From a virus: 64,000 nucleotides of DNA. Each line of letters starts with the position of its first letter. The first letter of the stretch is position 1. The notes under the pieces were generated by a model. The model had not been told where the DNA came from. It did not search any database and saw only the letters and a list, made by a program, of their open reading frames with translations. Below are positions 37,043-57,490 of the stretch, piece after piece. The DNA lies in IMG/VR virus record IMGVR_UViG_3300025137_000028, positions 9,931 through 73,930 of that record. The stretch is one strand, 5' to 3'. The position numbers were made by a program, and so were the translations under genes.

Positions 37043-38758
37043 ATGATAAGATTTAAAAAAATTAAGTGGAAAAATTTTCTGTCAACAGGTAATACACCAA
37101 TAGAAGTTGACTTAGATAAATCAAACACAACACTTGTTATAGGTACAAACGGTTCAGGCAAGTCAACTTTACTAGACGCCATGACTTTTGTTTTATTTAA
37201 TAGACCATTTAGAATAATAAAAAAAGAACAAATGGTTAATACGATAAACAATGGTGAAGCATTAGTAGAAATAGAATTTTCAATAGGTACTAAACAATAT
37301 AAAGTTATTAGAGGTATTAAACCTAACATATTTGAAATATATGAAGACGATCAATTAATAAACCAAGACGCTTCTAGTATTGATTATCAAAAGATATTAG
37401 AAAGAAATATAATGAGATTAAGTTATAGATCATTTATTCAAGTAGTAATATTAGGGTCATCATCTTACGAGCCATTTATGAAAATGAAATCTCGTTATAG
37501 AAAAGAAGCAGTTGAAGAGATACTTGACATAAAAGTATTTTCACATATGGACTGGATGTTAAGAGATCAACAATCTGTTTTAAATAAAAAGATTATAGAA
37601 GTTAAACATAATGCTGATCTAGTAAAATCTAAGTATGAATTAGAAAGTAAACACTTTAATGAAATAAAGAATAGAAATACAGATGATAAGACACAAAAAG
37701 AACAACAGTTAGATAAATTAAACTTAGATAAAAAAGATTACTTAGAAAAGATACAAAAATTAGATGGTGAATATACACAACTAAAAGAACAAACAATTGA
37801 TAAAGGTCCTCAAACAACAAGATTAACTCAATTAGAAAAACTAGAAACAAAGATAGAACAAAATTTAGAAACTCATACAAAGAATTTAGAGTTTTTTGAA
37901 GAAAATGATACCTGTCCTACTTGTACACAACCAATTGATGAAACATTTAAATTAGGAAAACAAGAAGAACTAAAGAGTAAAGTTGTTACCTTAAATGAAG
38001 GTATGAAAAAATTAGTAGAAGAAATATCTACTACTGAAACTAAATTATCAGAAATTAATTCTATATCTGAAAAAATGTCAGATTTAAATATAGAAATGTC
38101 AAAAGTTAATACATCAATAAATGAACTTAAAAAATTTAGTGACAATCTACATAATGAGATATTATTGTTAGATAACAAAAAAGAGGACAGTGATAATATA
38201 GAAAAACAATTAGAAGAATTAAAAGTTAATTTAGAACAATCACAAGTTGATTTAGATAAAATTACCGAAGAAAAAACATATATTGATACAGTTAGAGAAA
38301 TACTATCTGAAAAAGGTGCTAAAACAAAAATTATTAAAAAGTATTTACCTATAATGAATACTTTAATAAATCAATACTTACAAGATATGAACTTCTTTGT
38401 TAACTTTCATTTAGATGAAGAGTTTAACGAGACAATAAAAAGTAGATTTAGAGATACTTTTAATTACAATAATTTTAGTGAGGGTGAAAAACTAAGAATA
38501 GATTTAGCATTGCTATTTACTTGGCGACAGATTGCTAAAATGAAAAATAGTACAAATACAAACGTTTTAATATTAGATGAAATATTTGATAGCTCATTAG
38601 ATGGTCAAGGTACAGATGACTTCTTTAAAATTATTAAATCACTATCAAAAGAAAATATCTTTATTATATCACATAAGGGCGATATACTATTTGATAAATT
38701 TACTAATATCATAAAATTTGATAAAATAAATAACTTTACGAGGTTACAGAATGTCTAA
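37043..38758 (+). CDS. gp46: Recombination ATPase gp46 (Rad50-like)
   Basis: NGSGKST, CPTC hook, FSEGEK signature and LDE motifs. Confidence 0.96.
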   Translation: MIRFKKIKWKNFLSTGNTPIEVDLDKSNTTLVIGTNGSGKSTLLDAMTFVLFNRPFRIIKKEQMVNTINNGEALVEIEFSIGTKQYKVIRGIKPNIFEIYEDDQLINQDASSIDYQKILERNIMRLSYRSFIQVVILGSSSYEPFMKMKSRYRKEAVEEILDIKVFSHMDWMLRDQQSVLNKKIIEVKHNADLVKSKYELESKHFNEIKNRNTDDKTQKEQQLDKLNLDKKDYLEKIQKLDGEYTQLKEQTIDKGPQTTRLTQLEKLETKIEQNLETHTKNLEFFEENDTCPTCTQPIDETFKLGKQEELKSKVVTLNEGMKKLVEEISTTETKLSEINSISEKMSDLNIEMSKVNTSINELKKFSDNLHNEILLLDNKKEDSDNIEKQLEELKVNLEQSQVDLDKITEEKTYIDTVREILSEKGAKTKIIKKYLPIMNTLINQYLQDMNFFVNFHLDEEFNETIKSRFRDTFNYNNFSEGEKLRIDLALLFTWRQIAKMKNSTNTNVLILDEIFDSSLDGQGTDDFFKIIKSLSKENIFIISHKGDILFDKFTNIIKFDKINNFTRLQNV

Positions 38759-39296
38759 AGATTTACAATTAATACCACCTAACGATCCAAGAGTTTGTTC
38801 AGCAATCGCACCATTTAGTGACGATATGTTAAAAGAACACAATCTAAAAGATAGACAAGAACTATCTGATAATATGTTTGAATTAATGTTTAAATATGGT
38901 GGTATAGGGTTATCAGCAAATCAAGTAGGTTTACCTTTTAATATGTTTGTTATGGGTGGGCATCCTGAATTAGAAAAAGGTTTAAGAATGACTTGTTTTA
39001 ATCCTATGATTATATCAGCTAGTGAAGAAACAATTGTTATGAAAGAAGGTTGTTTAACTTTTCCTTTTATGTTCTTATCTATTACAAGACCTAGAAAAGT
39101 TGTAGTAAAATATGAAGATGAAAAAGGTGATCTAAAAGAAGGTCATTTAGACGGCATGATTAGTCGTATTTTTCAACATGAACACGATCACATGTTAGGT
39201 AGATTATTTACAGAGAGAGCTAGTAAACTTAAACTAAAGAGGGCAAATATATATGCTAAAAAACAAATCAAAAAAATATCGAAAAGAAAAAAATAA
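38751..39296 (+). CDS. def: Peptide deformylase
   Basis: GIGLSANQVG, EGCLT and QHEHDH motifs. Confidence 0.95.
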   Translation: MSKDLQLIPPNDPRVCSAIAPFSDDMLKEHNLKDRQELSDNMFELMFKYGGIGLSANQVGLPFNMFVMGGHPELEKGLRMTCFNPMIISASEETIVMKEGCLTFPFMFLSITRPRKVVVKYEDEKGDLKEGHLDGMISRIFQHEHDHMLGRLFTERASKLKLKRANIYAKKQIKKISKRKK

Positions 39297-39417
39297 AATT
39301 TTTGAACATAATCCTAGTACAGGAGTTATTAGATGGCGTTATGTTGGTGAATCACCAGACAAGTTTGGCTGGCCGAACTATGGAAGAATATTAAAGAATG
39401 TCAAAAAACGAAATTAA
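39253..39417 (+). CDS. Small hypothetical protein (54 aa, not in ORF track)
   Basis: Hand translation MLKNKSKKYRKEKNKIFEHNPSTGVIRWRYVGESPDKFGWPNYGRILKNVKKRN fills the gap between def and the next gene. Confidence 0.5.
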   Translation: MLKNKSKKYRKEKNKIFEHNPSTGVIRWRYVGESPDKFGWPNYGRILKNVKKRN

Positions 39418-40018
39418 AAAATTATTTCCTACACCCTTATACATAGGTAACATAGGTGTAAATGAAGACTGGCTAACTTATATTAATTCATTAGATTTTG
39501 AGTTAACTTATTTAAAAAACGGTTTACAAACACAAGACAGACATATACTTTTACATAAAGAATTATCATCATTAAAGAAAAAAATAGATGATGAGTTTGA
39601 GATATATGCTAGAGATAAACTTAGAATAAATAAAAAACATAATTTTGAAATGATAAACTCATGGTGTAATATACATAATCAAGGACATGTAGCACAACCA
39701 CATCATCATCAAAATAGTATGTTTAGTGGTGTGTATTATTTACAATCAACAGAGAATACAGGTGCTATTAAGTTTAATCAAAGTCCTTTTAAGAGTTGGA
39801 ATAATATTATGATTAAATTAGAAATAGATGAAGGAAATGAATTTAATAATGATGAATGTATAATTAATCCTATGCCTGGTACAGTAGTGTTATTTCCGTC
39901 TTGCGTTTCACATGAAACAGATGTAAACAATACAACACATCAAAGATATTCACTTGCCTTTAATTACTTTCCTAGAGGTCAGTTTGGTGATAAAGAATCA
40001 TACTTGGAGATAAAATAA
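39398..40018 (+). CDS. 2OG-Fe(II) oxygenase (TIGR02466-like)
   Basis: LFPTP, SWCN...HHH.NS.FSGVYY and FPS..H...RYSLAFN motifs. Confidence 0.85.
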   Translation: MSKNEIKKLFPTPLYIGNIGVNEDWLTYINSLDFELTYLKNGLQTQDRHILLHKELSSLKKKIDDEFEIYARDKLRINKKHNFEMINSWCNIHNQGHVAQPHHHQNSMFSGVYYLQSTENTGAIKFNQSPFKSWNNIMIKLEIDEGNEFNNDECIINPMPGTVVLFPSCVSHETDVNNTTHQRYSLAFNYFPRGQFGDKESYLEIK

Positions 40019-40617
40019 TGAATGTAGAAATTACAGATGACTTTATAGGAATATTTGATAATTTTTTTACAGACGAATATATTGAAAATTATATTACTTA
40101 CTTTGAAAAAATGAATAAAAACAATTTAACTTTCAAAAGAGAGTTTAGTCCTAGCCATGAAGTTGATGACACAGCATTTGATGAGCTTTCAGAACCATTT
40201 TATATAAAAGAATTACCTGTACATTACATGGCAAAAAATTTTATTGATATATTTTTTAATCAAAAACATGGACCATATCAAAGATATATTGAAAAGTTTA
40301 GTATTTTAAAAACACAAGGTAGACACTCAATATTTGATATAAAGATACAAAAGACAGAGCCAGGTCAAGGGTATCATATTTGGCATGTAGAAAATAGCCA
40401 ATTAACTAGTAGAAATAGAGTTACTGCTTTTACATTGTACTTAAATGATGTAGAAGATGGTGGCGAGACAGAGTTTTTATATCAAAAAAGAAGAATTAAA
40501 CCTAAGAAAAATAGATTAGTTATTTGGCCTGCTCATTTTACTCATGTACATAGAGGAAATCCACCCTTATCAAATGACAAATATATTTTAACTGGTTGGA
40601 CTGAATACTCTTATTAA
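40018..40617 (+). CDS. 2OG-Fe(II) oxygenase
   Basis: GYHIWHVE, YLNDVEDGGETEF and HRGNPP..KYILTGW motifs. Confidence 0.9.
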   Translation: MNVEITDDFIGIFDNFFTDEYIENYITYFEKMNKNNLTFKREFSPSHEVDDTAFDELSEPFYIKELPVHYMAKNFIDIFFNQKHGPYQRYIEKFSILKTQGRHSIFDIKIQKTEPGQGYHIWHVENSQLTSRNRVTAFTLYLNDVEDGGETEFLYQKRRIKPKKNRLVIWPAHFTHVHRGNPPLSNDKYILTGWTEYSY

Positions 40618-41132
40618 TGAAAATACAAGTTGACGATTATAAATTTTACAGACATACAAACTTTATGGATAAATCCTATAAAGAAAAGTATATTTCTGAT
40701 ATTGATAAAGTCATATCAGACGGACATGTAGCTAGTAGTAATGTGCCACCTTTACAAACTAAAACAGACTTATATGATCATGTAAAATTTTTAAATCGTT
40801 GGATTGAACTACAAATAAAAATAAAAACAATTATAGAAGAAAATATAGGTAAAGTACAACTCACTGAAAGTTGGGCAAATATTAGTAGAGAAGATAATAG
40901 ATTTAGTTTTCATACACACAAAAGAGATATAACTGCTGTATATTATTTAAAAAACAATTATACTAATTACGGCACACAAATAGATGATAAAGTAATTATA
41001 CCTGGTTTAGAAAACTCAGTGTTAATATTTGATGGCAAGATAAATCATAGTATTATTAATATGCCTTTTGAGTTAGCAGTACACCCACACAACAATAGAT
41101 ATTCAGTAGTATTTGATTATGACACCATATAA
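40617..41132 (+). CDS. 2OG-Fe(II) oxygenase-like protein
   Basis: SWAN...FHTH...AVYY...GT...IFDG...H...RYSVVF. Confidence 0.65.
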   Translation: MKIQVDDYKFYRHTNFMDKSYKEKYISDIDKVISDGHVASSNVPPLQTKTDLYDHVKFLNRWIELQIKIKTIIEENIGKVQLTESWANISREDNRFSFHTHKRDITAVYYLKNNYTNYGTQIDDKVIIPGLENSVLIFDGKINHSIINMPFELAVHPHNNRYSVVFDYDTI

Positions 41133-41871
41133 TTTTCCTAAATTAGTTATTGAACAACATGATGGCTTTCATATAGTAAGAGACGACTTACTAGAAGGTG
41201 GTTCTAAAAGAAGATTTGTAGATAGGTATATGAGAGAAGAGATAGAAGAAGGTGCCGAAGAGTTTGTATATGGCGGTTGTCCAGCAAACGGTTATGCTCA
41301 ATTATCTCTTACATTACAAGCGAATCACTATGGTAAAAAAGCTGTTTTTTTCATGGCTAAAAGATCATTAGATAATTTACACCCTTATCAAAAACAAGCA
41401 TTAGACTATGGTGCTGACATTAGGTGGGTACCTAATGGTATGTTACAAGTCACAAAAGCAAGAGCCAGAGAGTATTTTTATGAGGATCCTATAAGACGTA
41501 GAATATTACCATTAGGGCTAGAAGAAAAAAGAGTATTTGAAGATATAAGGGACCTTGCCAAAAACATAGAAATAGTGTATAGTATAAAGATTAGTGAAAT
41601 TTGGTCAGTAGGATCAAGTGGCACTTTAACAAGAGGATTACAAATGGCGTTTCCAGACAAAGAAGTACATTGTGTTTCAGTAGGTCACAAAATGGCTCAA
41701 CATGAAATAGGAAGAGCAAATTTGTATTTAAGTAAATATAAGTTTACACAAGAAGTTAAAGAAGAAGATAAACCACCTTTTCCATCTGTGCCGACTTATG
41801 ACGCAAAAGCATGGTCAATTATGAAAGAACATGCTAAACCAAACGCACTATTTTGGAATGTAGGAAAATGA
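41119..41871 (+). CDS. PLP-dependent enzyme, fold type II (ACC deaminase / D-cysteine desulfhydrase-like)
   Basis: RDDLL.GGSKRR (PLP lysine), GSSGT phosphate loop, YDAKAW and LFWN motifs. Confidence 0.8.
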   Translation: MTPYNFPKLVIEQHDGFHIVRDDLLEGGSKRRFVDRYMREEIEEGAEEFVYGGCPANGYAQLSLTLQANHYGKKAVFFMAKRSLDNLHPYQKQALDYGADIRWVPNGMLQVTKARAREYFYEDPIRRRILPLGLEEKRVFEDIRDLAKNIEIVYSIKISEIWSVGSSGTLTRGLQMAFPDKEVHCVSVGHKMAQHEIGRANLYLSKYKFTQEVKEEDKPPFPSVPTYDAKAWSIMKEHAKPNALFWNVGK

Positions 41872-42053
41872 CATATAAAACACACGAAGAAAAACAAAAA
41901 GTATTAGACGAAAAAATGAAAAAGTTTTTAGAGAAAGGTAAGTCAATTGAAAAACTACCACCTGGCTCTGCTTACAATCTAGGATCACTAGACTTTCATG
42001 GCAAACCTAGATATACAGCTTTAGAAATTAAAGCAGGTAAAGACAAAAAATGA
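41868..42053 (+). CDS. Small hypothetical protein
   Basis: FLEKGKSIEKLP motif; ATGA overlaps at both ends. Confidence 0.6.
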   Translation: MTYKTHEEKQKVLDEKMKKFLEKGKSIEKLPPGSAYNLGSLDFHGKPRYTALEIKAGKDKK

Positions 42054-42199
42054 GTAGAGGTGTATTAAAAATTATAGCTAAGTTAAGAATGCTATGGGCA
42101 GACATAAGAGGTCATCATGGCAAAGTATGGGATTATGAACCTGGTGATTATTATATGGGTAGCCATAAAGGTCATAAAAAACATCAAAAGAAAAAATGA
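42050..42199 (+). CDS. Small hypothetical protein (49 aa, not in ORF track)
   Basis: MSRGVLKIIAKLRMLWADIRGHHGKVWDYEPGDYYMGSHKGHKKHQKKK; ATGA overlaps with both neighbours. Confidence 0.6.
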   Translation: MSRGVLKIIAKLRMLWADIRGHHGKVWDYEPGDYYMGSHKGHKKHQKKK

Positions 42200-43275: not shown

Positions 43276-43290
43276 GAACAAAACAAGAAC
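43276..43290. promoter_or_regulatory. Alphaproteobacterial-type LexA (SOS) box
   Basis: GAAC-AAAACAA-GAAC matches GAAC-N7-GAAC; intergenic, upstream of a promoter. Confidence 0.6.
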
Positions 43291-43368: not shown

Positions 43369-45636
43369 ATGACTACACAAATAAACATTAATACTAAATC
43401 TCAATTAGCAAAACTTATTGCTACAGAAAATCTTACAGTACAACATAACAACGTCAAAACTGCTAGTTTTGATACATTAAATAGAATACTTACTTTACCT
43501 ATTTTTAAAATACAAACAGGTGACATATACGATATGTTAATAGCACATGAATGTTCACATGCTTTATTTACACCTACTAAAAGTTGGCAAACAATTGCTA
43601 GTGATGATGAGTTAAGAGCTTATGTAAATGTTATTGAAGATTGTCGTATAGATAAAAAAATTCAAAAGAAATATCCAGGTGTTGTTAAAAACTATTTACA
43701 AGGGTTTGATGACATGATGTCTAAAAACTTCTTTGGTTTAGATGGCAAAGATGTTAATACAGACTTAATGTTAATTGATAAAATTAATATGTACTACAAA
43801 TCTTCAAAAAGATTAGACATTAAATTTAATGCTTCAGATAAACTATGGATTAAAAAAGTTGATGAAGTAAAATCTTTTAAAGATGTTGTTCAATTAGCCA
43901 AAAAGATGTTAGATTGGCAGAAAAAACAATTACAGAAATTAAAAAAACTACCTGATTTTGATACACATCCTTTAGTTGAAAACTATAATTTAGATAAAAA
44001 CAAAGACTCAGATAATAATGTTAACACTAAAGATAGTGATTCTGCTGATAACAAATCAGACAATTCTAATGAATCAAATGAAGATGGTACAGATGAAAAA
44101 GACGGTTCTTCTTTAAATGATACAAATGAAGGTGATTCAAAATCAGATGAAAAAGATAGTGAACAAATTGCTAATGATCTAGGTGCTGGGTCAGGTGCTA
44201 CTAAGGGTTTTAGTAAATTGAAAGCAGTAACTAATATTAGTTTAGATAGTAATAAAGAAAGATTATATGATAATAGTAAATCATTTAATTATTGTTCTTT
44301 GCCAGATGTTAAATTAAAAAATGTTATTATTGATTACAAGAAATTTATTAAAGATATGAGATCACATATTGCTTTAAAAAGAAAAGAAGGTTTAAGTGGT
44401 GATATAACTCAATATATTAATTGGTTAAAAAATGATTTTACTAAGTTTAAAACTGATAACAAAAAAACTGTAATGTATCTTGTTAAAGAATTTGAAATGA
44501 AAAAAGCTGCCACTGCTTATAAAAAATCTTCTACTGATAAAACAGGTGTTATTGATCCTCTTAAATTAAAAAATTACAAATTTAGTGATGATATATTTAA
44601 AAGATTAACTGTATTGCCTGATTCTAAAAATCATGGTATGATAATGTTATTAGATTGGTCAGGTTCTATGAGTGATATATTGATGAAAACAGTAGAACAA
44701 TTAATTAACTTAGTTTCATTTTGTCAAAAGATTAATATACCATATGAAGTTTACTTTTTTAATAGTACAAGAGACTCAACAAGAGGACTTGATAAAACAT
44801 GTTTTAATTATAAACATGGCGATATGGTATTTGACAATTTTGTGTTAGTTAATATCGCTAGCCATAGAATGAATAAAAGAGATTTAGATGAGTCTTTAAT
44901 GTATCTATACAGTATGGCAGATTATTTTTCTGATAGATATAGTTCTTGGAGAGACTTAAATAATGATTATCAAAAAGGTCACAATTACGGTATGCCAGAT
45001 AACTATTGGTTAGGTAATACACCTTTAAATGAGGCGCTAGTTGCTTGTGATAAAGTAATTAAATTATTCAAACAAAAATATAATATTGAAAAACTAAGTT
45101 TTATTACTCTTACTGACGGTGCTTCAAATTATACTAGAGGTAAAGTTGAGAATACAGATACCGGATTAGAAAGAGGTGATATGCCTTATGACGGTGTGCT
45201 TGTTATTAAAGACGGTAAAAAATCTTATGTTATAGATAAAGATGATGAACACTATTATTCAGGTGAAAAAGTTACTTCTTCTATTTTACATGTAATTAAG
45301 AAAAAACACAATGTTAAAACTATCGGTTTTTATATGATTAAAAGAACAAGAGGTTATGAGACAAGTAGATTTTTCAGTACAATGGGTAGAGATAGTGATA
45401 AGGCTTTAAAAAGAAAACAAGCTTTTGCTAAAGATAAAGTATGTACAGTTGATAAAAAAGGTTATGATGAATACTTTTTAGTTAATGTTAAAAACATGGC
45501 AGTACAAAATACTGACTTGTCATCATTAAAAAGTGATATGAAGGCTGGTAGAATCAAACAAATATTCAGTAAAAGTATGAAAGGACGAATCACTTCCAGA
45601 GTGCTTTTAAACAAATTTATACAGAATGTCGCTTAA
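43369..45636 (+). CDS. CobT-like protein: HExxH metallopeptidase-like N-domain plus vWA domain
   Basis: HECSH, NVIED.RI, MIDAS DWSGS, TPL and LTDG motifs; next to a MoxR-type ATPase. Confidence 0.8.
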   Translation: MTTQININTKSQLAKLIATENLTVQHNNVKTASFDTLNRILTLPIFKIQTGDIYDMLIAHECSHALFTPTKSWQTIASDDELRAYVNVIEDCRIDKKIQKKYPGVVKNYLQGFDDMMSKNFFGLDGKDVNTDLMLIDKINMYYKSSKRLDIKFNASDKLWIKKVDEVKSFKDVVQLAKKMLDWQKKQLQKLKKLPDFDTHPLVENYNLDKNKDSDNNVNTKDSDSADNKSDNSNESNEDGTDEKDGSSLNDTNEGDSKSDEKDSEQIANDLGAGSGATKGFSKLKAVTNISLDSNKERLYDNSKSFNYCSLPDVKLKNVIIDYKKFIKDMRSHIALKRKEGLSGDITQYINWLKNDFTKFKTDNKKTVMYLVKEFEMKKAATAYKKSSTDKTGVIDPLKLKNYKFSDDIFKRLTVLPDSKNHGMIMLLDWSGSMSDILMKTVEQLINLVSFCQKINIPYEVYFFNSTRDSTRGLDKTCFNYKHGDMVFDNFVLVNIASHRMNKRDLDESLMYLYSMADYFSDRYSSWRDLNNDYQKGHNYGMPDNYWLGNTPLNEALVACDKVIKLFKQKYNIEKLSFITLTDGASNYTRGKVENTDTGLERGDMPYDGVLVIKDGKKSYVIDKDDEHYYSGEKVTSSILHVIKKKHNVKTIGFYMIKRTRGYETSRFFSTMGRDSDKALKRKQAFAKDKVCTVDKKGYDEYFLVNVKNMAVQNTDLSSLKSDMKAGRIKQIFSKSMKGRITSRVLLNKFIQNVA

Positions 45637-45667
45637 AATGTCAATAAAACTAGGGTTATTTAATGGC

Positions 45668-45696
45668 TTGACAATCGTACAAAAAGGTGATACCAT
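45668..45696 (+). promoter_or_regulatory. Sigma70-type promoter
   Basis: TTGACA-N17-TACCAT with TG extension. Confidence 0.65.
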
Positions 45697-45727
45697 ATAT
45701 TAATAAATGAAGAAAGGACAATACACT

Positions 45728-46951
45728 ATGTTAAATGTAAAACAACAAGACTTTGTTAATCATGCTTATAAGCTGTTTAATAAAGACGTTTTAACTATTG
45801 ATGAGTTAAAACAAGCCAATAAAAAGTTTGGCTGTAAGTATCCACCACAATGGTTGACTAAAAATAAAGACTATAAAGTTGATACTAAAAAATATAAATT
45901 GCCACTAGATGGTGATTTAACTGTATCTACTCAACCAGAGACGGAAAAAGTATTAGATACTAAAGTACCTGAAGTAGAAAAGACTCAGACCGAGGCTGCC
46001 TATGTAGTTTCATCTTTAGTTGGCAATATTGTGCCGAAAAAAGATCCTGTCTTTGTTTCTTTCGGTAACTATACAGATGTAAAATCTATTATCAAGTCAG
46101 GCAAATTTTATCCTGTGTTTATTACAGGCTTGTCTGGTAACGGTAAAACAATGGGTGTTACTCAGGCTTGTGCCGAAAACAAAAAAGAATTAATCAGAGT
46201 AAACATTACAATTGAAACAGATGAAGATGATTTACTAGGTGGTTATAGACTTAAAGATGGTCATACTGTCTGGCAGAATGGTCCTGTTATTGAGGCAATG
46301 GAGAGAGGTGCTGTCTTGTTATTAGATGAGATTGACCTTGCTTCTAATAAGATAATGTGTTTACAACCGATATTAGAAGGTTCAGGTGTGTTTGTTAAAA
46401 AGATTAACAAGTATATAAAACCTAAAGACGGCTTTAACGTGTTTGCTACTGCCAATACTAAAGGGCAAGGTAGTGAAGATGGTAAGTTTATCGGTACTAA
46501 TATTCTTAATGAGGCATTTTTAGAAAGATTTCCTGTTACTTTTGAACAGAAATATCCTTCAGTTTCAATTGAGAAAAAAATACTTAACAACACTTTAAAA
46601 GTTGCTGGTAAATCAGATGTTAAGTTTGTTGACAAGTTAACTACTTGGGCAGACGTTATCAGAAAAACTTATTTTGACGGTGGTGTTGATGAGATTATCT
46701 CAACTAGAAGACTGGTTCATATAGTTCAAGCTTTTGCTATCTTTGGCAATAAGATGAAAGCTGTTGAAGTATGTACTAATAGATTTGATGATGATACAAA
46801 AAATTCGTTTGTTGAGTTATATACTAAAGTTGACGCTGGTGCCAATGCTGAAAGCATTATGGAAGACCAGAAGAAAGCTGATTTAGCTGAACAATTGGAT
46901 GACAATGATAGTGAGTCTGATAGTGAGGAAGATGATTCTGATACTATTTAA
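45728..46951 (+). CDS. cobS: CobS-like MoxR AAA+ ATPase
   Basis: GLSGNGKT, LLDEID, TANTKG and EAFLERF motifs; start chosen from AAAGGA SD (45707 possible). Confidence 0.88.
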   Translation: MLNVKQQDFVNHAYKLFNKDVLTIDELKQANKKFGCKYPPQWLTKNKDYKVDTKKYKLPLDGDLTVSTQPETEKVLDTKVPEVEKTQTEAAYVVSSLVGNIVPKKDPVFVSFGNYTDVKSIIKSGKFYPVFITGLSGNGKTMGVTQACAENKKELIRVNITIETDEDDLLGGYRLKDGHTVWQNGPVIEAMERGAVLLLDEIDLASNKIMCLQPILEGSGVFVKKINKYIKPKDGFNVFATANTKGQGSEDGKFIGTNILNEAFLERFPVTFEQKYPSVSIEKKILNNTLKVAGKSDVKFVDKLTTWADVIRKTYFDGGVDEIISTRRLVHIVQAFAIFGNKMKAVEVCTNRFDDDTKNSFVELYTKVDAGANAESIMEDQKKADLAEQLDDNDSESDSEEDDSDTI

Positions 46952-47036: not shown

Positions 47037-47234
47037 ATGAGAGTTGATGTTAGAAACAATAATGTAGAACAAGCATTAAGAGTTTTAAAGAAAAAATTAA
47101 TGAAAGATGGTCGTCTTAAAGAATTAAAAGAAAGAGCATATTATATTAAACCCTCTGAGTTGAAAAGAGAAGCAAAAAAACGTGGTATTATTAACTATAA
47201 AAAGAACAAAAAAAAACTAGATCAACAACGTTAG
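47037..47234 (+). CDS. rpsU: Ribosomal protein bS21
   Basis: VRNNNVEQALRVLKKK...ELKER.YY.KPS..KR matches bS21; GGGAGG SD. Confidence 0.92.
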   Translation: MRVDVRNNNVEQALRVLKKKLMKDGRLKELKERAYYIKPSELKREAKKRGIINYKKNKKKLDQQR

Positions 47235-47237: not shown

Positions 47238-47396
47238 TTTTTTACGCTGTTTTTGTTGTATATATATTATTGAGGTGGCAATTCATAAGTCCGCTTCAGC
47301 GTAAAAAAGGGAGCCAAGAAACCCGATTTATAAAGTCAAACTTGGCGTCGCTAGGTGATATTTGATACTTTGACACCTTGACAAAATAAAGTATCG
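47238..47396 (+). ncRNA. Candidate structured RNA in the rpsU-hsp20 intergenic region
   Basis: Several nested or alternative stems (see findings); no family recognised. Confidence 0.4.
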
Positions 47397-47410
47397 TACA
47401 TATATAAATA
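47378..47410 (+). promoter_or_regulatory. Overlapping host-type and late promoters of hsp20
   Basis: TTGACA-N17-TATATA plus TATAAATA at 47403-47410. Confidence 0.65.
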
Positions 47411-47468: not shown

Positions 47469-47921
47469 ATGACAGATCACAAAGCAATTCACTCAATTTT
47501 TACTGGACTAAAACCGTTTACTGTAGGGTTTGACGATATGTTTGACCATTTAGATATGGTACACAATCACATTCCACATTTAACGGCTAATAACTATCCG
47601 CCATACAATATTGTAAAGACAGGCTCTTTAACATATGACATAGAAGTGGCATTGGCTGGTTATAATAAGAAAGATGTACAAGTAACTTATGAGAATAATA
47701 TGATTAAAATTAACTCTGTAAAAAGTAAAGACGAAAAAGAAGTTGAAGACAATGACGGAATATTACATAAAGGCATTGCTAAAAGAAACTTCTATAAATC
47801 TTTTACTATAGCAGAGGATATTGAGGTAAAAGGTGCTGAATTAAAAGATGGACTTTTAAGAGTATCTTTAGAAAAAATTGTTCCAGACCATAAGAAGGCT
47901 AGAACTATCAATATCAAATAA
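47469..47921 (+). CDS. hsp20: Small heat-shock protein Hsp20 (IbpA-like)
   Basis: NYPPYNI, EVALAG, HKGIAKR.F and DGLL motifs. Confidence 0.95.
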   Translation: MTDHKAIHSIFTGLKPFTVGFDDMFDHLDMVHNHIPHLTANNYPPYNIVKTGSLTYDIEVALAGYNKKDVQVTYENNMIKINSVKSKDEKEVEDNDGILHKGIAKRNFYKSFTIAEDIEVKGAELKDGLLRVSLEKIVPDHKKARTINIK

Positions 47922-48774: not shown

Positions 48775-48782
48775 TATAAATA
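48775..48782 (+). promoter_or_regulatory. T4-type late promoter
   Basis: TATAAATA 5 nt before ATG 48788. Confidence 0.7.
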
Positions 48783-51046: not shown

Positions 51047-51565
51047 ATGAGAGTTGATTTATTTTCAACTCCCATATTGATAGATGACTTTGATATTACT
51101 AAGTTAAAATTTGTAGAAGAAGGTCAGCAAACCCAATTTGGCAGTGAAATAAAAACCAGTCATGGTTTTACTAACATTATAGAAAAAGATAGTTTAGATT
51201 ATTTCTACAATAAGATAGTAAGTAATTTAGATCAAGTTATTTCCCAATCATATCATGTTAAAGCAGATAATATATGGCGTAACTACTATAAAGAAGGTGA
51301 CTGGCAAGAAAAACACACCCATATAGGTTCTGACTTTTCATTTATAATTTATGATAGTGTAAAGTCTAATACTTGGTTTGTTCACCCAGCACACTATTTA
51401 ATACAAGAAAAATATAAAGATAAAAAACTATTTGATACAGAGGTAAAACCTCATATCAATTATGGTCAGATTTGTATTTTTCCTAGTTACTTAGAGCATT
51501 ATGTGTCTAAAGCTGAAAGTCAATCAACAACTATATCAGGTAATTTAAGTATAGAAATAAAATGA
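51047..51565 (+). CDS. 2OG-Fe(II) oxygenase
   Basis: W.N.Y...QEKHTH..SFIIY...FPSYLEH.V...TISGN. Confidence 0.75.
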   Translation: MRVDLFSTPILIDDFDITKLKFVEEGQQTQFGSEIKTSHGFTNIIEKDSLDYFYNKIVSNLDQVISQSYHVKADNIWRNYYKEGDWQEKHTHIGSDFSFIIYDSVKSNTWFVHPAHYLIQEKYKDKKLFDTEVKPHINYGQICIFPSYLEHYVSKAESQSTTISGNLSIEIK

Positions 51566-52899
51566 GTTTATACGATTTTGATAACCCTACAGCAAAGACT
51601 AAAAGAATATTAGTCTATCCTAATATTACTTTTGCTAAAGATTTATCTAAAGATAGTTATATTCAAGTAATTAAAAAACACATAACATTGTTAAATGAAA
51701 TAAGAGACGATCTCTGGTTTTATTTAATATTACCTAAAGAGGTGCCAGAGTTAGCATTTGATAATGTTACACAATTGTTTTTAGATTTGCCTACTCACCC
51801 TCCTACTATGAGGGCACATTTTGATTCACAAGCTATTAAAAAACTTGTACCTAAAAACATAGATATAGACTTGGTCATGTCACATCTACCAGAACATACC
51901 TATGACTTAAAAAATGTTTTGTATAATGTAACTAATCATGTACCTAAATTTTTTGGTTACTGTCATTGGTTTGATTTAAAAGCAGTAGCAAACTGGCATA
52001 TGAATAGTTTTAAAAAGAATATTGTAGGTGTTTTAGAAATGGATAGATGTTATTTAAATACAGAGAGTCAAAAGAAATTAGTTATTGAAGAAGCAAAAGA
52101 AACTTTTAGTGACAGAGTAATATGGGATTTAGATAAAAAATTAACAGTTCAACATTTAGGTGTAGATGAAAAAGATATTGTAAAAGATATAAAAAGAGTA
52201 GAAGAAAAAATTATAGTATTCAATCATAGACCAGACACATACAAACATTACAAAGAATTTTTAAAAGTATGTGATAAACTATATGAACAAAGACAAGATT
52301 TTAAAGTGTGGGTACCTTTGGCAAGTAAAGCAGATAGAGAATATATAACAACTGAAAGTGGTGATAAAGATTTTTATTATAAAAAACTACAAGATTGTTA
52401 CATAGGTTATTCACCTAAACAATCTTATGGTGGGTGGTCTGTTGCGACAACAGATGGTATGATGAATGGTATACCTTATTTAATGTATGACGCTGACTAT
52501 TACAGAGAGTTATGGGATAAGGGTGTCTTTGTAAAAAATGATGATGAATTATTAGAAAAATTAAACTTCTATTTAGATAATGAATATAATAGAAATGTTT
52601 TAGCAGATGAAAGTTTACAACACATAAGATATAGATTAATTTTTAAAGACGAAGTAAAACAAATGAGTGATTACATAGATGAATTACATGATACTTTACC
52701 TAAGGTAAAAACCTCAGAAAAGATAAAAGAGATTATAAGTTGGATACAAAAAGAAAAACGTGTATCTAAAAGTGAAATTATGAAGAGATTAGGTTGGGGA
52801 GTAGGTATTAAGTGGACACAATATCGTGCCACACTATTGACTCACCCTAACATTTATGATATACTATCAAAAGATCCTGTATATTGTTGGATCGATTAA
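51562..52899 (+). CDS. GT-B glycosyltransferase with a possible C-terminal winged helix
   Basis: IVFNHR...K and YGGWSVATTDGMMNG.P resemble GT4 donor-binding motifs. Confidence 0.7.
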   Translation: MSLYDFDNPTAKTKRILVYPNITFAKDLSKDSYIQVIKKHITLLNEIRDDLWFYLILPKEVPELAFDNVTQLFLDLPTHPPTMRAHFDSQAIKKLVPKNIDIDLVMSHLPEHTYDLKNVLYNVTNHVPKFFGYCHWFDLKAVANWHMNSFKKNIVGVLEMDRCYLNTESQKKLVIEEAKETFSDRVIWDLDKKLTVQHLGVDEKDIVKDIKRVEEKIIVFNHRPDTYKHYKEFLKVCDKLYEQRQDFKVWVPLASKADREYITTESGDKDFYYKKLQDCYIGYSPKQSYGGWSVATTDGMMNGIPYLMYDADYYRELWDKGVFVKNDDELLEKLNFYLDNEYNRNVLADESLQHIRYRLIFKDEVKQMSDYIDELHDTLPKVKTSEKIKEIISWIQKEKRVSKSEIMKRLGWGVGIKWTQYRATLLTHPNIYDILSKDPVYCWID

Positions 52900-52918
52900 T
52901 TGAAAAGGAGTTTATATT

Positions 52919-53863
52919 ATGTCAGATTTTTTATGGGTTGAAAAGTATCGACCTAAAAAAATTAGTGATTGTATTCTTACACAAGAACTGAAAGATACAT
53001 TTACAAAATTTTTAGAACAAAAAGAAATACCTAATTTACTATTATCAGGTACAGCAGGTACAGGTAAAACTACTGTTGCTCGTGCTTTATGTGAAGAGTT
53101 AGGTACAGATTACATTATCATTAATGGTTCAGATGAAGGTAGACAGATTGATACACTTAGAAGTAAGATCAAAAACTTTGCCGCCACTGTATCACTTACC
53201 GAAGACGCCAATCATAAAGTTGTAATTATAGACGAGGCAGATTACATGAATGCTGACAGTGTTCAACCTGCTTTAAGAAACTTTATAGAAACATTTTATA
53301 ATAACTGTAGATTTATATTTACTTGTAATTATAAGAACAAAATTATACCAGCCTTACATAGTCGTTGTACAGTTATTGATTTTAAAATTGTAAATGGTCA
53401 AAGAGTTAAAACTGCTACTGCCTTTCTTAAAAGACTAGAGGGTATTCTAAATGATGAACAAGTAGGTTTTGATAAGAAAGTATTAGCAGAGTTAATACAA
53501 AAATATTATCCTGACTTTAGAAGAACAATAAACGAGTTACAAAGATATGCTGTAAGAGGTAAGATAGACAGTGGTATTTTGTTTAGTTTATCTGAGGTAA
53601 ATCATAAAGAGTTAATGCTGACTTTAAAAGAAAAACGTTTTAATGATATGAGAAAATGGGTTGTACAAAACTTAGACAAAGAACCATCACATTTATTTAG
53701 AACCATTTATGATGTATTGTATAAAGAATTAGATCCTAAGGCAGTACCACAAGCAATATTAATTATTGCTGGCTATCAATATAAAGCTGCCTTTGTTGCT
53801 GACCAAGAGATTAATATGGTCGCATGTTTAACTGAAATAATGGCGAGTTGTAAGTTTAGGTAA
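52919..53863 (+). CDS. gp44: Clamp loader large subunit gp44
   Basis: WVEKYRP, GTGKTT, DEAD and SRC motifs. Confidence 0.97.
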   Translation: MSDFLWVEKYRPKKISDCILTQELKDTFTKFLEQKEIPNLLLSGTAGTGKTTVARALCEELGTDYIIINGSDEGRQIDTLRSKIKNFAATVSLTEDANHKVVIIDEADYMNADSVQPALRNFIETFYNNCRFIFTCNYKNKIIPALHSRCTVIDFKIVNGQRVKTATAFLKRLEGILNDEQVGFDKKVLAELIQKYYPDFRRTINELQRYAVRGKIDSGILFSLSEVNHKELMLTLKEKRFNDMRKWVVQNLDKEPSHLFRTIYDVLYKELDPKAVPQAILIIAGYQYKAAFVADQEINMVACLTEIMASCKFR

Positions 53864-53867
53864 GACT

Positions 53868-53975
53868 ATGCCTCATAAAAAAAATCCTATAGCAAAAGAA
53901 GTAAGAACACCTAAGTATAAACCAAGAGTAGTAAAACCTAAAAAAGGTAAAGGTAGTTTTAAAAGAAAAAAGTAA
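53868..53975 (+). CDS. arfA: ArfA-like alternative ribosome-rescue factor (35 aa, not in ORF track)
   Basis: MPHKKNPIAKEVRTPKYKPRVVKPKKGKGSFKRKK carries the ArfA core N.I......P....RV...KKGKGS(Y/F).RK; its stop overlaps the next ATG. Confidence 0.72.
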   Translation: MPHKKNPIAKEVRTPKYKPRVVKPKKGKGSFKRKK

Positions 53976-54601
53976 TGATAGAAAAAGAAGTAATAAATGA
54001 AATGAAAGAGTTACAACCCTTTCACAAAGAGAACCTTATAAAAGGTTTATATTCTTGGCAAGAGTTTGAACAACTGATTAATTTAAGACCATTTGTAAAC
54101 AGTAAAAGATTTCATATAATTACAGATAAGATATTTAATTGGCAATCTAGTTTTTGGGCGTCTGATAAATTCTCATATCCAGTAGATTTAGTTGTAGATG
54201 AAACACAAAACAACATGGCATATTTAAGTGATTGTAGTAGAGCAAGTAAAAATATTAATGCTGTTTGTGAATGGCTAGAATATAGATTAAAAATGCCAAC
54301 AGACGCACACATTTATTTTTCGTTAAATAAAGAAAGTAAATCTTTTGATAAACATATAGATGAAGCACACAATCTTATTGTACAGATAGAAGGTCAAACT
54401 AGATTTAAGATATATAACTTAGAAGATGATTTAATAATAGACAAAGTATTAAGTAAGAATGACGCTGTGTTTATACCTAAAGGATATGCTCATCAAGCAG
54501 AGTCACTAAATAAAAGATTATCAATTAGTTTTCCTATGAAACCTGGTGATAGTAAAGAACAAGAATTTGAAAGTAGAAAATGGATAGAGTTCAACGAATA
54601 G
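53975..54601 (+). CDS. JmjC/cupin 2OG oxygenase (YcfD/RoxA-like)
   Basis: HIY.S...SFDKHID...LIVQIEG...F.IY and FIPKG.AH.A...S.SF match the cupin_4 pattern. Confidence 0.75.
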   Translation: MIEKEVINEMKELQPFHKENLIKGLYSWQEFEQLINLRPFVNSKRFHIITDKIFNWQSSFWASDKFSYPVDLVVDETQNNMAYLSDCSRASKNINAVCEWLEYRLKMPTDAHIYFSLNKESKSFDKHIDEAHNLIVQIEGQTRFKIYNLEDDLIIDKVLSKNDAVFIPKGYAHQAESLNKRLSISFPMKPGDSKEQEFESRKWIEFNE

Positions 54602-55167
54602 AATATTGGCACTGGTCAGCTGGCGAAATCTTTAACACAAATTATTTTGAAGGTCCAGATGATATAAAACAACTTCACAGTGTTATTAAAGATAATTTAA
54701 ACAAAGACATAAAAGATTTACCTGCTAGTGGTGTGCCAAAAACTTCTAAAGTAGATTTTATTTCATACAAACCATTACGACCATACCTTATTAATTTAGA
54801 ACAAAGAATTAAATGGTGTAACAATGAACACTTTGGTTTTAATTTACATGAATTTACAGATTTTGATTCAGTACATCTAAATACATATAGCTCATCAAAC
54901 TCTGGCGAGTATGGTTGGCATAGTGATGTAGCAGATGGTGATAAACCGTGGGATATAAAATTTACAGTATTGATAAATGTATCGCAAAATTCTTATACAG
55001 GTGGTGACTTTCAGTTTATGTTAAATGGCGAACAAGATGTACCTGAGTTTAAAAACTGTGGTGATGTAATTATGTTTAGATCACACTTACAACATAGAGT
55101 AAAACCTATGATATTAGGTGAAAGACAAACATTATCTTTATTTGTGATAGGACCTAAATTTCAATGA
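54580..55167 (+). CDS. 2OG-Fe(II) oxygenase (prolyl-4-hydroxylase-like)
   Basis: EYGWHSD, GGDF and F.S...HRVKP...GER motifs. Confidence 0.85.
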   Translation: MDRVQRIEYWHWSAGEIFNTNYFEGPDDIKQLHSVIKDNLNKDIKDLPASGVPKTSKVDFISYKPLRPYLINLEQRIKWCNNEHFGFNLHEFTDFDSVHLNTYSSSNSGEYGWHSDVADGDKPWDIKFTVLINVSQNSYTGGDFQFMLNGEQDVPEFKNCGDVIMFRSHLQHRVKPMILGERQTLSLFVIGPKFQ

Positions 55168-55559
55168 GTTATGAATTAAAAGATTATCTGAACGCAATCA
55201 ACTTTTCAAAAGTTAATTTACTAGATACAGATGACGAGACGTGGGCAAAGAAATATCCACCTTATGTAATTAATAAGTGCTTGTCTATGTTCTATGATTG
55301 TATCGCACAAGCAAATGAAATGAATGGCTATCACTTCTTAGATAAGAAAGTTCAGTTTCATTTTTACATAAATAGTATCAGAAAAAGAAAGCGATTTGGT
55401 GGTAAGTGGCTATCACAAGCCAAATTGAAGAATTTAGAGTATGTAAAAGAGTATTATGGATATAGCAATGAGAAGGCTAAGGACGCTCTCAATATACTTA
55501 CAGAAAAACAAATTGAAGTTATTAAAGAATCCTTGAATAAAGGTGGGAGAACAAAATGA
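55164..55559 (+). CDS. gp62: Clamp loader small subunit gp62
   Basis: YPPYVINKCLS, RKRKRF and YYGYSNEKA motifs. Confidence 0.93.
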   Translation: MSYELKDYLNAINFSKVNLLDTDDETWAKKYPPYVINKCLSMFYDCIAQANEMNGYHFLDKKVQFHFYINSIRKRKRFGGKWLSQAKLKNLEYVKEYYGYSNEKAKDALNILTEKQIEVIKESLNKGGRTK

Positions 55560-55993
55560 GTGAAGAGATAAAATGGTCGCCTGAGAGTATGTTAGAGGTA
55601 ACAATCAAACAACCAGACGACTTCTTAAAAATTAGAGAGACACTTACGAGAATAGGTGTTGCCAGTAGAAAAGATAAGACACTATATCAATCGTGTCACA
55701 TATTACACAAACAAGGTAAATACTTTATAACACATTTTAAAGAATTGTTTGCCTTAGATGGAAAAAAATCAACGTTAGTTGTTAATGATATTCAAAGAAG
55801 AAACACTATAGCAATATTATTACAAGATTGGAATTTGATAGATATAGTTGATAAATCTAACACGGAAGATAAAGCACCTTTATCACAAATAAAAGTATTA
55901 CCTTTTAAAGAAAAACCAGAGTGGACTTTATCAGCAAAATATAATATTGGTAAAAAAGTAGAGACTAATGAAGAAGTTAAAGATGAGAAATAA
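55556..55993 (+). CDS. regA: Translational repressor RegA
   Basis: DDFLKIRETLTRIG and QSCHILHKQG.YFI.HFKELF motifs. Confidence 0.96.
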   Translation: MSEEIKWSPESMLEVTIKQPDDFLKIRETLTRIGVASRKDKTLYQSCHILHKQGKYFITHFKELFALDGKKSTLVVNDIQRRNTIAILLQDWNLIDIVDKSNTEDKAPLSQIKVLPFKEKPEWTLSAKYNIGKKVETNEEVKDEK

Positions 55994-57490
55994 ATGGAAG
56001 TTTCTAAATTTAAAGAGTTTATTAGTGAAGATAGAAGTATAGATAGAAAAGATAAATCTATTACTATTGCTATCATCACAATAGCAGATTCAAAAGACCC
56101 TAAAGAAAATACAACTGCTGATCTTATACAAAAAGCGTGTAAGAAAAAAGGCTTAAAATGTATTATTGTAAATACTAAATCTACAATCATAACAGATAAA
56201 GATGAAGATAAAAATACTTTAACTGTTTATAATTATGATGGTAAAAATAGTGAACACACTTTCACTGGTAAAGATACAATTTGTTTTACAAGAGGTGGTG
56301 CTTTAGAAGATGAAGCAGGACTATCTCTAATATCTTCATTTCAAAACTCACAAGCATTTATGTTAAACACAAGAGCGGCAATGCTTACTTGTGATAACAA
56401 ACTTACAGCTGCTTTGTTGTTTGAAAAGTTTGGGTTACCTACACCTAAAACATCTTATGTTTCTAATGAGAATAATATTAAGACTGCTTTAGATATGGTA
56501 GGCGGTAAATTTCCTGTGATAATGAAAACACTTACAGGTACACAAGGTGTTGGTGTTATTAAAATTGAGAGTTATGAAGGTCTAGTGGCAACTTTACAAG
56601 CAATGTGGAAACTAGAAGCAGAAATATTATTACAAGAGTATATGCCTTCTAAGTTTGATGTAAGAACGGTAGTAGTAGATAATAAAATATTTGCTAGTAC
56701 AAAAAGAACTCACAGCTCTTATGACTTTAGATCAAACACACATAGAGGGGCAGAGGCAGAACCATATACTATAGATGATGAAGAAAGAGAATTAATATTA
56801 AAGGCAGCCAGAGTTTCTAAAGCATATTATGTAGGAGTAGATCATATAATATTTAATAATAAACCATATCTATTAGAGATTAACGGTAGTCCAGGTTCAG
56901 GTGCTGATTACGAGGGGTATCAACATAGAGATTATTACGCTGACGCAGAGCCAGCAGGTAGAATTGATGGCGAAAAAGTAATAGAAAATTTAATTGATTA
57001 TGTTTCAGAAAGAAAAAATTGGGATAGACAATCACTTTTAGAAACTGGTTGGTTAGAAACAGTTGATTTAGATGAAGTGGGTAAAGTAAGAGTTAAGTTT
57101 GATACTGGTAACGGTTCAGCTGCTTGTGCCTTACACGCAGACAAAATTTTAGAAGATGGTAAGATTGTTAAATGGAAATATGATGGCAAGACTTATAGTA
57201 AACCTAGACATGGTACAAGTAAAGTGTTTAGATCAAATGCTACTAACGAACCATCAGAGGTAAGACCAACTATATTAATGGACTTAACATTTAATGGTTT
57301 TACATATAAAAATATAGAGATTGGTTTAGACCAAAGACCTAGATCAGGTTCAGACCTACTAGTCAATAGAGATTTAATGCGACAGATGAATATTAGTGTC
57401 AACCCTAATAGAACGTTTGTATTAAGTAAAAGAATAAGACCCATTGAAAAAGATGGTAAAAAAGATAAAATTGGCTTTGAAAAGAAATAA
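55994..57490 (+). CDS. RimK-like ATP-grasp ligase fused to a RimB-like retropepsin-type protease
   Basis: ATP-grasp motifs DNK, FPV..K..GTQG.GV, QEY, FRSN.HRG and EINGSPG; C-domain GWLETV...KFDTGN...RP...L..R. Confidence 0.85.
   Translation: MEVSKFKEFISEDRSIDRKDKSITIAIITIADSKDPKENTTADLIQKACKKKGLKCIIVNTKSTIITDKDEDKNTLTVYNYDGKNSEHTFTGKDTICFTRGGALEDEAGLSLISSFQNSQAFMLNTRAAMLTCDNKLTAALLFEKFGLPTPKTSYVSNENNIKTALDMVGGKFPVIMKTLTGTQGVGVIKIESYEGLVATLQAMWKLEAEILLQEYMPSKFDVRTVVVDNKIFASTKRTHSSYDFRSNTHRGAEAEPYTIDDEERELILKAARVSKAYYVGVDHIIFNNKPYLLEINGSPGSGADYEGYQHRDYYADAEPAGRIDGEKVIENLIDYVSERKNWDRQSLLETGWLETVDLDEVGKVRVKFDTGNGSAACALHADKILEDGKIVKWKYDGKTYSKPRHGTSKVFRSNATNEPSEVRPTILMDLTFNGFTYKNIEIGLDQRPRSGSDLLVNRDLMRQMNISVNPNRTFVLSKRIRPIEKDGKKDKIGFEKK

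Follow-up and report, generated by a model that had tools for sequence, protein, structure and literature searches.

The pelagimyophage (PMP) groups, myoviruses that infect SAR11, are treated by Zaragoza-Solas et al. 2020 (PMC7029224), who describe peptide deformylase (PDF) and ribosomal protein S21 as core genes of these phages. Phage-encoded bS21 was described by Mizuno et al. 2019 (as cited in PMC7029224), and an S21 gene is also carried by the SAR11 siphovirus Kolga (PMC8163748). Genes annotated as ArfA occur in two phages of other kinds: gp30 of pelagiphage HTVC027P, a podovirus with a SAR11 host, is expressed early and late (PMC12753301), and g10 belongs to the siphovirus-like Citromicrobium phage RXM (PMC8953757). 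RimK together with RimB makes free poly-alpha-L-glutamate, and a RimBK hybrid occurs in Desulfotalea (Little et al. 2025, PMC11957791). Here we analyse 64,000 nucleotides of one strand of a viral genome (IMG/VR record IMGVR_UViG_3300025137_000028, positions 9,931 to 73,930), referred to as the window. An earlier note on this DNA had proposed that PDF, bS21, Hsp20, an ArfA-like peptide, a RoxA-like JmjC enzyme, prolyl-hydroxylase-like enzymes, RegA and a RimK-RimB-like fusion, spread over positions 38751-57490, form one programme for taking over the ribosomes of an oligotrophic host.

All eight components are present at 38751-57490, and their identities agree with the general theme that several genes here touch translation. 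Taken one by one, they belong to kinds of phage auxiliary gene that are known; bS21, PDF and ArfA of phages have been described before, as the earlier note had said of the first two. A single ribosome-takeover programme is not supported by the distribution of the genes, by synteny or by the bS6 protein of the presumed host. The reading that we prefer, and to which we assign a probability of roughly 0.7, is that the region is an ordinary T4-type replication/recombination module of a pelagimyophage, composed of lineage-core genes and sporadic add-ons rather than of a co-evolved or co-inherited unit. The variable slots between core genes would then hold auxiliary genes gained and lost independently, and each of the listed genes most likely acts alone. 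One system would amount to a new multi-component viral way of re-tooling host ribosomes, which the data do not support.

Gene order in the window and its relatives

The record is linear, 73.9 kb long and ~40% complete; the window, which is part of it, has a GC content of ~30% and carries all genes on the + strand. Its nearest cultured relatives are the Pelagibacter phages HTVC008M and Mosig and the Methylophilales phage Melnitz (all Kyanoviridae), whose nucleotide matches to the window are patchy only, at 72-77% identity. The oligotrophic host assumed by the earlier note fits these phages of SAR11 and OM43, and it fits the ArfA-like peptide, which shares 71-91% identity with genes on SAR11 chromosomes. 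The comparison used 80 gp44-anchored IMG/VR loci, gp44 being a core gene without bias toward accessory genes, and further IMG/VR sets anchored on ArfA (73 loci) and on JmjC (80 loci). Presence counts for bS21, Hsp20, PDF and RimK use the loci that span both flanking genes of the slot. The nearest relative is locus L002, with a gp44 that is 92% identical.

The order gp46-[2OG]-PDF-...-CobT-like-CobS-bS21-Hsp20-gp45-gp44-[slot]-gp62-RegA-[RimK]-DUF6561-ferredoxin-gp43 (2OG, 2-oxoglutarate oxygenase) is common to HTVC008M, Mosig and the 80 gp44-anchored loci. The clustering of the components within 19 kb on the + strand is thus real, and it is the inherited synteny of a T4-type replication module with no special aggregation. 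Gene order in the pelagimyophage module is the same as in the window, which differs from HTVC008M and Mosig by the addition of the ArfA-like and JmjC genes in the gp44-gp62 slot and of extra 2OG oxygenases behind PDF. Searches of HTVC008M, Mosig and Melnitz found no ArfA in any of the three; HTVC008M also lacks RimK, and Mosig and Melnitz lack a JmjC gene of the window type.

Four of the listed genes occupy fixed syntenic positions and are vertically inherited lineage-core genes. Both bS21 and Hsp20 are found in 19/19 loci spanning CobS to gp45, the former also in HTVC008M, Mosig and Melnitz; PDF is found in 4/5 loci spanning gp46 to CobT. RegA is present in 75 of the 80 gp44-anchored loci and in the same place in HTVC008M and Mosig, a location that is canonical for T4 (gp45-gp44-gp62-regA-gp43). 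Because these genes are inherited vertically at fixed positions, their co-occurrence carries no functional signal. The whole HTVC008M record (NC_020484.1) gave no PF01327 match at E<=0.001, though PDF is placed in all pelagimyophages by PMC7029224.

Distribution of the accessory genes

The remaining genes are far more variable. Of 79 loci, 39 have nothing recognised in the gp44-gp62 slot; in 21 it contains the small open reading frame (ORF) p49 alone, in 11 ArfA with p49, in 6 2OG oxygenases (p49 present or not) and in 2 JmjC. The combination of ArfA, JmjC and 2OG seen in the window occurs in 0/79. An ArfA-like gene is thus found in 11/79 and JmjC in 2/79 gp44-anchored loci, while L002 has the order gp44-JmjC-2OG-gp62 without ArfA. 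Of the loci that span RegA to gp43, 28/40 carry RimK, as two subtypes that are ~60-86% and ~30% identical to the window copy, and one locus (L149) has ArfA and no RimK. The adjacency of ArfA and JmjC is unique to this genome (0/79 gp44-, 0/73 ArfA- and 0/80 JmjC-anchored loci); the two genes co-occur in a single relative (L121), where they stand 4.3 kb apart. Around JmjC in the 80 loci anchored on it, the commonest neighbours are other 2OG oxygenases, in 32, with RimK in 3, and ArfA and PDF in 1 each.

Motif and profile searches for ArfA found at least 342 IMG/VR stretches that encode an ArfA-like peptide, in three or more contexts. In the ArfA-anchored set the gene lies behind gp44 in T4-like contigs and near gp46/PDF in others, and ~40 of these contigs share none of the window's 30 proteins, the small ORF p54 sometimes excepted. 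Twelve ArfA-bearing records that are not T4-like have no bS21, PDF or RimK, among them a complete genome of 210 kb (terminal repeats) and one of 58.6 kb that is 93% complete.

ArfA, JmjC and RimK are thus patchy and mutually independent across relatives, the pattern that the earlier note had itself named as refuting its proposal. The components co-occur no more than shared ancestry gives, the core genes by synteny only, and neither adjacency nor an operon of the accessory components is conserved. Identity to the corresponding SAR11 genes also differs widely (71-91% for ArfA, 47-48% for bS21 and 37-41% for PDF), which fits separate acquisition histories. The features of the region are collected in Table 1.

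Table 1. Coordinates in the window and supporting matches of the genes discussed
Feature	Position	Strand	Evidence and remarks
Peptide deformylase (PDF)	38751..39296	+	PF01327 E 3.5e-37; TIGR00079 110 bits, over cut-off
p54, small basic ORF (48-54 aa family)	39253..39417	+	core ERNPxTGVIRWRYxxESxxKFGWPNYGRIL; 10 homologues, 76-86% identity
2OG-Fe(II) oxygenase (2OG-FeII_Oxy_5 / TIGR02466 type)	39398..40018	+	PF13759 E 5.6e-22; TIGR02466 82 bits, over cut-off
2OG-Fe(II) oxygenase, prolyl-4-hydroxylase (P4H)-type family (2OG-FeII_Oxy_3)	40018..40617	+	PF13640 E 4.7e-14
Possible third 2OG oxygenase, weak	40617..41132	+	PF13759 E 0.0011, under cut-off
p49, basic ORF family of 45-51 aa	42050..42199	+	conserved ADIRGHHGKxWxYEPGDYYMG
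bS21	47037..47234	+	PF01165 E 2e-14; TIGR00030 48 bits vs cut-off 29
Hsp20 / IbpA-like small heat-shock protein	47469..47921	+	PF00011 E 4.3e-14
2OG-Fe(II) oxygenase, between gp45 and 445-aa gene	51047..51565	+	PF13759 E 3.3e-9
gp44 clamp-loader large subunit	52919..53863	+	PF00004 and Gp44_lid; backbone; starts the tightly packed gp44..RimK run
ArfA-family peptide, 35 aa	53868..53975	+	PF03889 31.0 bits (29.7 six-frame) vs gathering score 25.5
Stand-alone JmjC catalytic domain (208 aa)	53975..54601	+	PF08007 E 6e-10
2OG-Fe(II) oxygenase, P4H-type family	54580..55167	+	PF13640 E 1.9e-8
gp62 clamp-loader small subunit	55164..55559	+	PF16790 E 2e-7; backbone
RegA translational repressor	55556..55993	+	PF01818 E 5.6e-45
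RimK-family ATP-grasp ligase with C-terminal RimB-like retropepsin domain (498 aa)	55994..57490	+	PF08443 E 1.4e-36

Transcription and the case for one system

The genes gp44, ArfA, JmjC, 2OG, gp62, RegA and RimK make up one packed run (TAATG, ATGA and 22-nt overlaps), an arrangement that is not conserved in relatives. Consensus promoter sites would divide the region into at least eight putative transcription units, among which gp44 to RimK alone is visibly one packed run. These units are tentative, because sigma70-like sites are no more frequent than in shuffled sequence (112 vs 112.5) and the late-promoter motif TATAAATA is under-represented in the window (7 vs 15.9 expected). A sigma70-like site at 52837-52865 precedes gp44 as a consensus match only. 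T4-type late-promoter motifs TATAAATA are found at just two places in the region, 47403-47410 and 48775-48782, immediately upstream of hsp20 and of a 429-aa gene (48788), respectively; a sigma70-like site (47370-47397) belongs to hsp20 as well. In public data, a 2-kb DNA contig from one run bridges gp44 to gp62 with 6 differences. Contig pieces of gp44, JmjC, 2OG, gp62, RegA and RimK were found in three metatranscriptome libraries with 0-1 differences, a weak hint of expression given that DNA carry-over is possible.

Several points weigh against the view that the region consists of core genes and independent additions. In this phage, the ArfA, JmjC, 2OG, gp62, RegA and RimK genes probably share a transcript with the clamp loader, since stops and starts overlap from gp44 to RimK. 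Most relatives are short fragments, and the counts given above cover the fetched flanks only. Five to seven translation-linked genes in a single genome is a high count. All of the ArfA-bearing loci that reach gp43 carry RimK (6/6), in a small sample of close relatives with gp44 82-88% identical. Finally, functional convergence on the ribosome is compatible with independent inheritance; a looser convergence of this kind, on translation in general, lies in our estimate between improbable and unlikely. We did not count a Fisher-type association between ArfA and RimK (6/6 vs 22/34) as evidence, given that the ArfA-bearing loci are close relatives.

The stronger form of the argument is a coordinated programme, assembled piecemeal and acting together, in which bS21 would serve initiation, the mini-ArfA recycling, RimK-RimB, JmjC and the P4H-type enzymes the modification of ribosomal proteins, and PDF and Hsp20 the nascent chains. 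All components look intact (the PDF, JmjC and RimB catalytic motifs and the ArfA core), the JmjC fold is nearest to ribosomal oxygenases, ArfA to RimK form one overlapping run with RegA, and the near-identical metatranscriptome pieces of this run, with the reservation made above, point in the same direction. Against this stand the independent distributions of ArfA, JmjC and RimK, an ArfA-JmjC adjacency seen in this genome only, a SAR11 bS6 that has no Glu-Glu acceptor, and a JmjC protein without the dimerisation and winged-helix domains of all characterised ribosomal oxygenases. We therefore regard such a programme as improbable, and return to its individual members under the preferred reading of core genes with separate additions.

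Origin and probable role of the short ArfA

The ArfA-like ORF is of a size that falls under the usual ORF cut-offs, and the earlier note was right to list an ArfA-like peptide here; its PF03889 score is over the gathering score (Table 1), and NCBIfam profiles gave no match. Its stop codon TAA (53973-53975) has a one-base overlap with the ATG of JmjC (TAATG). The alignment with E. coli ArfA is ungapped over 31 residues (chain 5mgp_w, 11-41; chain 5h5u_3, 12-42). In it, KKGKGSFKRKK of the window peptide is aligned to KKGKGSYMRKG, the part of E. coli ArfA that fills the empty mRNA channel, and K25, K26, G27, K28, G29, S30 and R33 are invariant across 8 phage ArfA copies. PRVV is aligned to QRVE (Q27-E30 in E. 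coli), the RF2-recruiting beta-strand, with R and V retained. Within the part that aligns with E. coli ArfA (PF03889; PDB 5MGP, 5MDV, 5U4I) lie RV, of the segment that contacts RF2 in the E. coli protein, and KKGKGS(Y/F)xRK, of the mRNA-channel segment. The window peptide differs in that it has only 35 aa, is without the N-terminal ~11 residues and overlaps the start of the next gene. Just 5 residues precede the aligned core, and a Lys lies opposite E. coli A18. The window gene and the SAR11 copies end at their own stop codons; judged by these ORF ends, they do not follow the mode of E. coli ArfA, which is made from an RNase III-truncated non-stop mRNA.

Searches of species-representative bacterial genomes gave at least 438 ArfA-like matches, the best 80 of which all come from Pelagibacteraceae (71-91% identity, 34-40 aa). 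The SAR11 gene, found in at least 80 genomes of this family with complete chromosomes among them, is single-copy, and its location is conserved, with pfkB-nth-dapB convergent to it on the downstream side (loci L236-L315, e.g. L275, 2992-3114); four of five SAR11 genes tested reach the PF03889 threshold. By these sequence comparisons, the short ArfA is native to SAR11, and the phages carry it as an auxiliary gene of host origin that shares 71-91% identity with chromosomal genes of 34-40 aa. In a survey from 2024, none of 2,376 Alphaproteobacteria genomes was scored as having arfA (PMC11633108). The interest of the mini-ArfA lies in this: a host-derived gene is widespread in SAR11 and its phages while surveys list no arfA for Alphaproteobacteria. 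HTVC027P gp30 and RXM g10 are, like the window gene, phage-borne genes with a PF03889 domain, the likeness to gp30 being one of annotation only; the window gene differs from those of the podovirus and the siphovirus-like phage in being located inside the clamp-loader operon of a myovirus.

From the conserved RV and KKGKGS(F/Y)xRK segments we infer that the mini-ArfA, copied from the SAR11 chromosome, most likely brings RF2 of the host to ribosomes that have stalled on a truncated mRNA; the N-terminal activating part is missing. It could also be a decoy or inhibitor that fills the empty mRNA channel or holds RF2 without activating release, for example blocking host trans-translation or shutting off host translation. 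The missing ~11 N-terminal residues are those that become ordered when RF2 opens, and the residue opposite E. coli A18 is Lys or Leu, where the A18T change abolishes RF2 activation (PMC8012679). We nevertheless consider a decoy unlikely: the same 34-40-aa form is the chromosomal SAR11 version, in single copy at a conserved locus, and the RV and KKGKGS(F/Y)xRK core is conserved. Because the short form is also chromosomal in SAR11, the mini-ArfA is better viewed as a native cellular factor than as a phage truncation.

The 34-40-aa ArfA is common to SAR11 chromosomes and to at least three kinds of pelagiphage. A broader proposal would be that the genes acquired piecemeal (mini-ArfA, bS21, PDF, JmjC and RimK-RimB) converge on the SAR11 ribosome, with the short ArfA a functional RF2-dependent rescue factor in Alphaproteobacteria, where arfA has been scored absent. 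This is an unlikely proposition at present; were it true, ribosome rescue driven by phages would be a frequent strategy within the most abundant virus-host pair of the ocean.

The JmjC protein and the 2OG oxygenases

The catalytic triad of the JmjC protein (H127-x-D129...H173) is invariant in 44 homologues. The structure is predicted with pLDDT 95, and all of the ~40 top PDB matches found for it by Foldseek are NO66, YcfD/RoxA and MINA53 (TMq 0.57-0.71, E 1e-10 to 1e-8). It has in common with these proteins the JmjC double-stranded beta-helix and the HxD...H triad. It has only 208 aa, compared with 373-640 aa for the ribosomal oxygenases, to which it is 13-18% identical. The model comprises the barrel only: the helical dimerisation domain and the C-terminal winged-helix domain of all characterised ribosomal oxygenases are missing (targets 360-460 aa, TMt 0.32-0.39). 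The description of this gene as RoxA-like holds for the fold, which is closest to ribosomal oxygenases, but only for a catalytic domain of the RoxA type. No NCBIfam profile matches the protein, and the name 'L16 Arg81 hydroxylase' given by JGI to some homologues is automatic annotation. No JmjC_2 gene was found in five SAR11 genomes (0/5); the phages carry a stand-alone, ribosomal-oxygenase-like JmjC domain of a kind that is missing from their host. A weak JmjC_2 match (24.7 bits) is present in HTVC008M gp105 (85854-86009).

The prolyl-hydroxylase-like enzymes of the earlier note correspond to five 2OG oxygenase genes, that at 40617 being weak, and two of them are of the P4H-type PF13640. The oxygenase at 54580-55167 has an 87% identical homologue in the same place in L002. 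Genes of the 2OG-FeII_Oxy_5 type are also found in seven of the 80 SAR11 loci (L237, L238, L243, L252, L263, L267 and L271), where one to three of them, in opposite orientation, separate the ArfA-like gene from pfkB; they lie 50-1000 nt downstream of the ArfA-like gene and are 23-30% identical to the protein encoded at 39398-40018.

The JmjC domain and the 2OG oxygenases would hydroxylate proteins or other substrates. We see close to an even chance, though somewhat below it, that these enzymes, possibly together with RimK-RimB, are unrelated to ribosomes and have other proteins, nucleic acids or metabolites as substrates, which may also hold for the many 2OG oxygenases of marine T4-like phages; RimK-RimB would then perhaps be packaged in the virion or be a poly-alpha-glutamate synthase. 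In many phage contexts JmjC homologues are grouped with further 2OG oxygenases, which, like the absence of JmjC_2 from the SAR11 genomes searched, argues for such a role, while the best structural matches of JmjC, all of them ribosomal oxygenases, argue against it. The RimK-RimB protein bears on the same question.

The RimK-RimB fusion

The fusion reported in the earlier note is real. The RimK domain (aa ~40-302) scores 126 bits with PF08443 against a cut-off of 21 and falls slightly under the cut-off of TIGR00768 (141.0 vs 143.4 bits); the top Foldseek matches are RimK (E 1e-21, 27-30% identity, TMt 0.75-0.80). The C-terminal domain (aa ~350-480) is of the PF05618/RimB type and has a D-T-G-N motif. 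The gathering score of PF05618 is 27; the window copy alone reaches 19.5 bits and falls short of it, and there are 23 homologues with a match among 32 (best E 3.5e-10). A profile of the domain family matches PDB 9g59 with E 1.3e-6 (9g59, 9g58 and 2pma span E 1e-6 to 2e-5), with the catalytic motif kfDtGn aligned to kmDTGA of 9g59 and D370, G372 and N373 invariant. Melnitz RimK has no RimB domain.

Like Pseudomonas RimK/RimB and Desulfotalea RimBK, the window protein combines an ATP-grasp domain with a PF05618 retropepsin-like domain carrying a D-T-G motif, and, as in RimBK, the two are in one polypeptide. The domain order is reversed, with RimB C-terminal in the window protein and N-terminal in Desulfotalea RimBK. 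In addition, there is no RimA, and a conserved N-terminal 12-mer is present. This sequence, MxVPKFKEFITE (55994-56029), is kept in all 32 homologues of both subtypes, with M1, F6 and E12 invariant, and the structural model has low confidence there. It resembles the capsid-targeting sequence of T4 internal proteins, cleaved by gp21 after Glu. The homologue in Yersinia phage YerA41 is annotated 'structural protein', and from the conserved 12-mer the RimK-RimB enzyme may be packaged in the virion.

The acceptor of E. coli RimK is bS6 with a C-terminal Glu-Glu. No such C-terminal acceptor is found in the SAR11 bS6 tails read, which describe the presumed host and not the enzyme itself: three full-length proteins end in ...KKENYKN, ...KKESVKN and ...KKEIAKN, and a fourth tail is ...AKEKN. 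The link from RimK to bS6 is weakened accordingly, because the step has no canonical acceptor in the presumed host. Five SAR11 genomes gave no strong RimK match. PF08443 does match SAR11 ORFs of 305-318 aa (E 1e-12 to 1e-18), which are probably ATP-grasp enzymes of other kinds, GshB and Ddl for example, and not RimK. The bS6 tails and the lack of a strong host RimK are consistent with a non-ribosomal function of the fusion, as are the 12-mer common to all 32 homologues, the YerA41 annotation and the formation of free poly-alpha-L-glutamate by RimK with RimB (PMC11957791). Opposed to this is that bS6 is the only established protein substrate of RimK. The phage enzyme would add and trim alpha-linked glutamates on an acceptor that is probably not host bS6, or make poly-glutamate. 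It merits attention for its reversed domain order and its presence in ~70% of related phages whose presumed host has no canonical bS6 acceptor.

Lineage-core genes with possible roles in translation

The phage PDF has the motifs GIGLSANQ, EGCLT and HEHDH, and K/R make up 13 of its final 26 residues; basic tails are also seen in 10 homologues. A cyanophage PDF was reportedly described by Frank et al. in 2013 (PDB 3UWA). The window PDF and bS21 belong to the same families as this enzyme and the phage bS21 of Mizuno et al. The window PDF keeps a long basic C-terminal tail, and its alignment extends across the C-terminal helix region of E. coli PDF, whereas the S-SSM7 enzyme (3uwa, 154 aa) ends sooner and is without such a tail. 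Working most likely as in other pelagimyophages and in T4, PDF would deformylate nascent phage proteins, probably at the ribosome via the retained tail, and phage bS21 would take the place of host bS21 and bias initiation. Hsp20 would hold unfolded proteins, and RegA would repress early mRNAs like its T4 counterpart.

Small ORFs and other genes of the region

In the gp44-anchored loci, p49 has 36 homologues. It follows the ArfA-like gene in all 11 of these loci that contain ArfA, and likewise in those T4-like loci of the ArfA-anchored set that extend to its position. Its place in relatives is directly behind ArfA (L004, L015, L024-L028 and L130-L152) or, in the 21 loci where it stands alone, directly behind gp44; in the window it lies 11.7 kb from the ArfA-like gene. 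No family matches p49, a protein atlas gave unnamed clusters only, below 0.9, and the ORF was not found in 5 SAR11 genomes. Likewise, p54 has no Pfam or PHROG match and, with this query, was not found in 5 SAR11 genomes. It stands behind PDF in the window, and in non-T4 phage contigs (L095, L098-L100, L102 and L104) its homologues come immediately after the ArfA-like gene; one of these contigs (L099) has the order GroES-like, ArfA-like, p54.

A 66-aa ORF at 41853 matches Pfam SutA-RBD with E 0.006, under the cut-off. At 43369-46951, a 755-aa 'peptidase' (phrog_459, no Pfam match) and an AAA_5/CobS-like ATPase form a conserved pair before bS21 in all relatives, and the C-terminal tail of the ATPase is very acidic (...DDNDSESDSEEDDSDTI).

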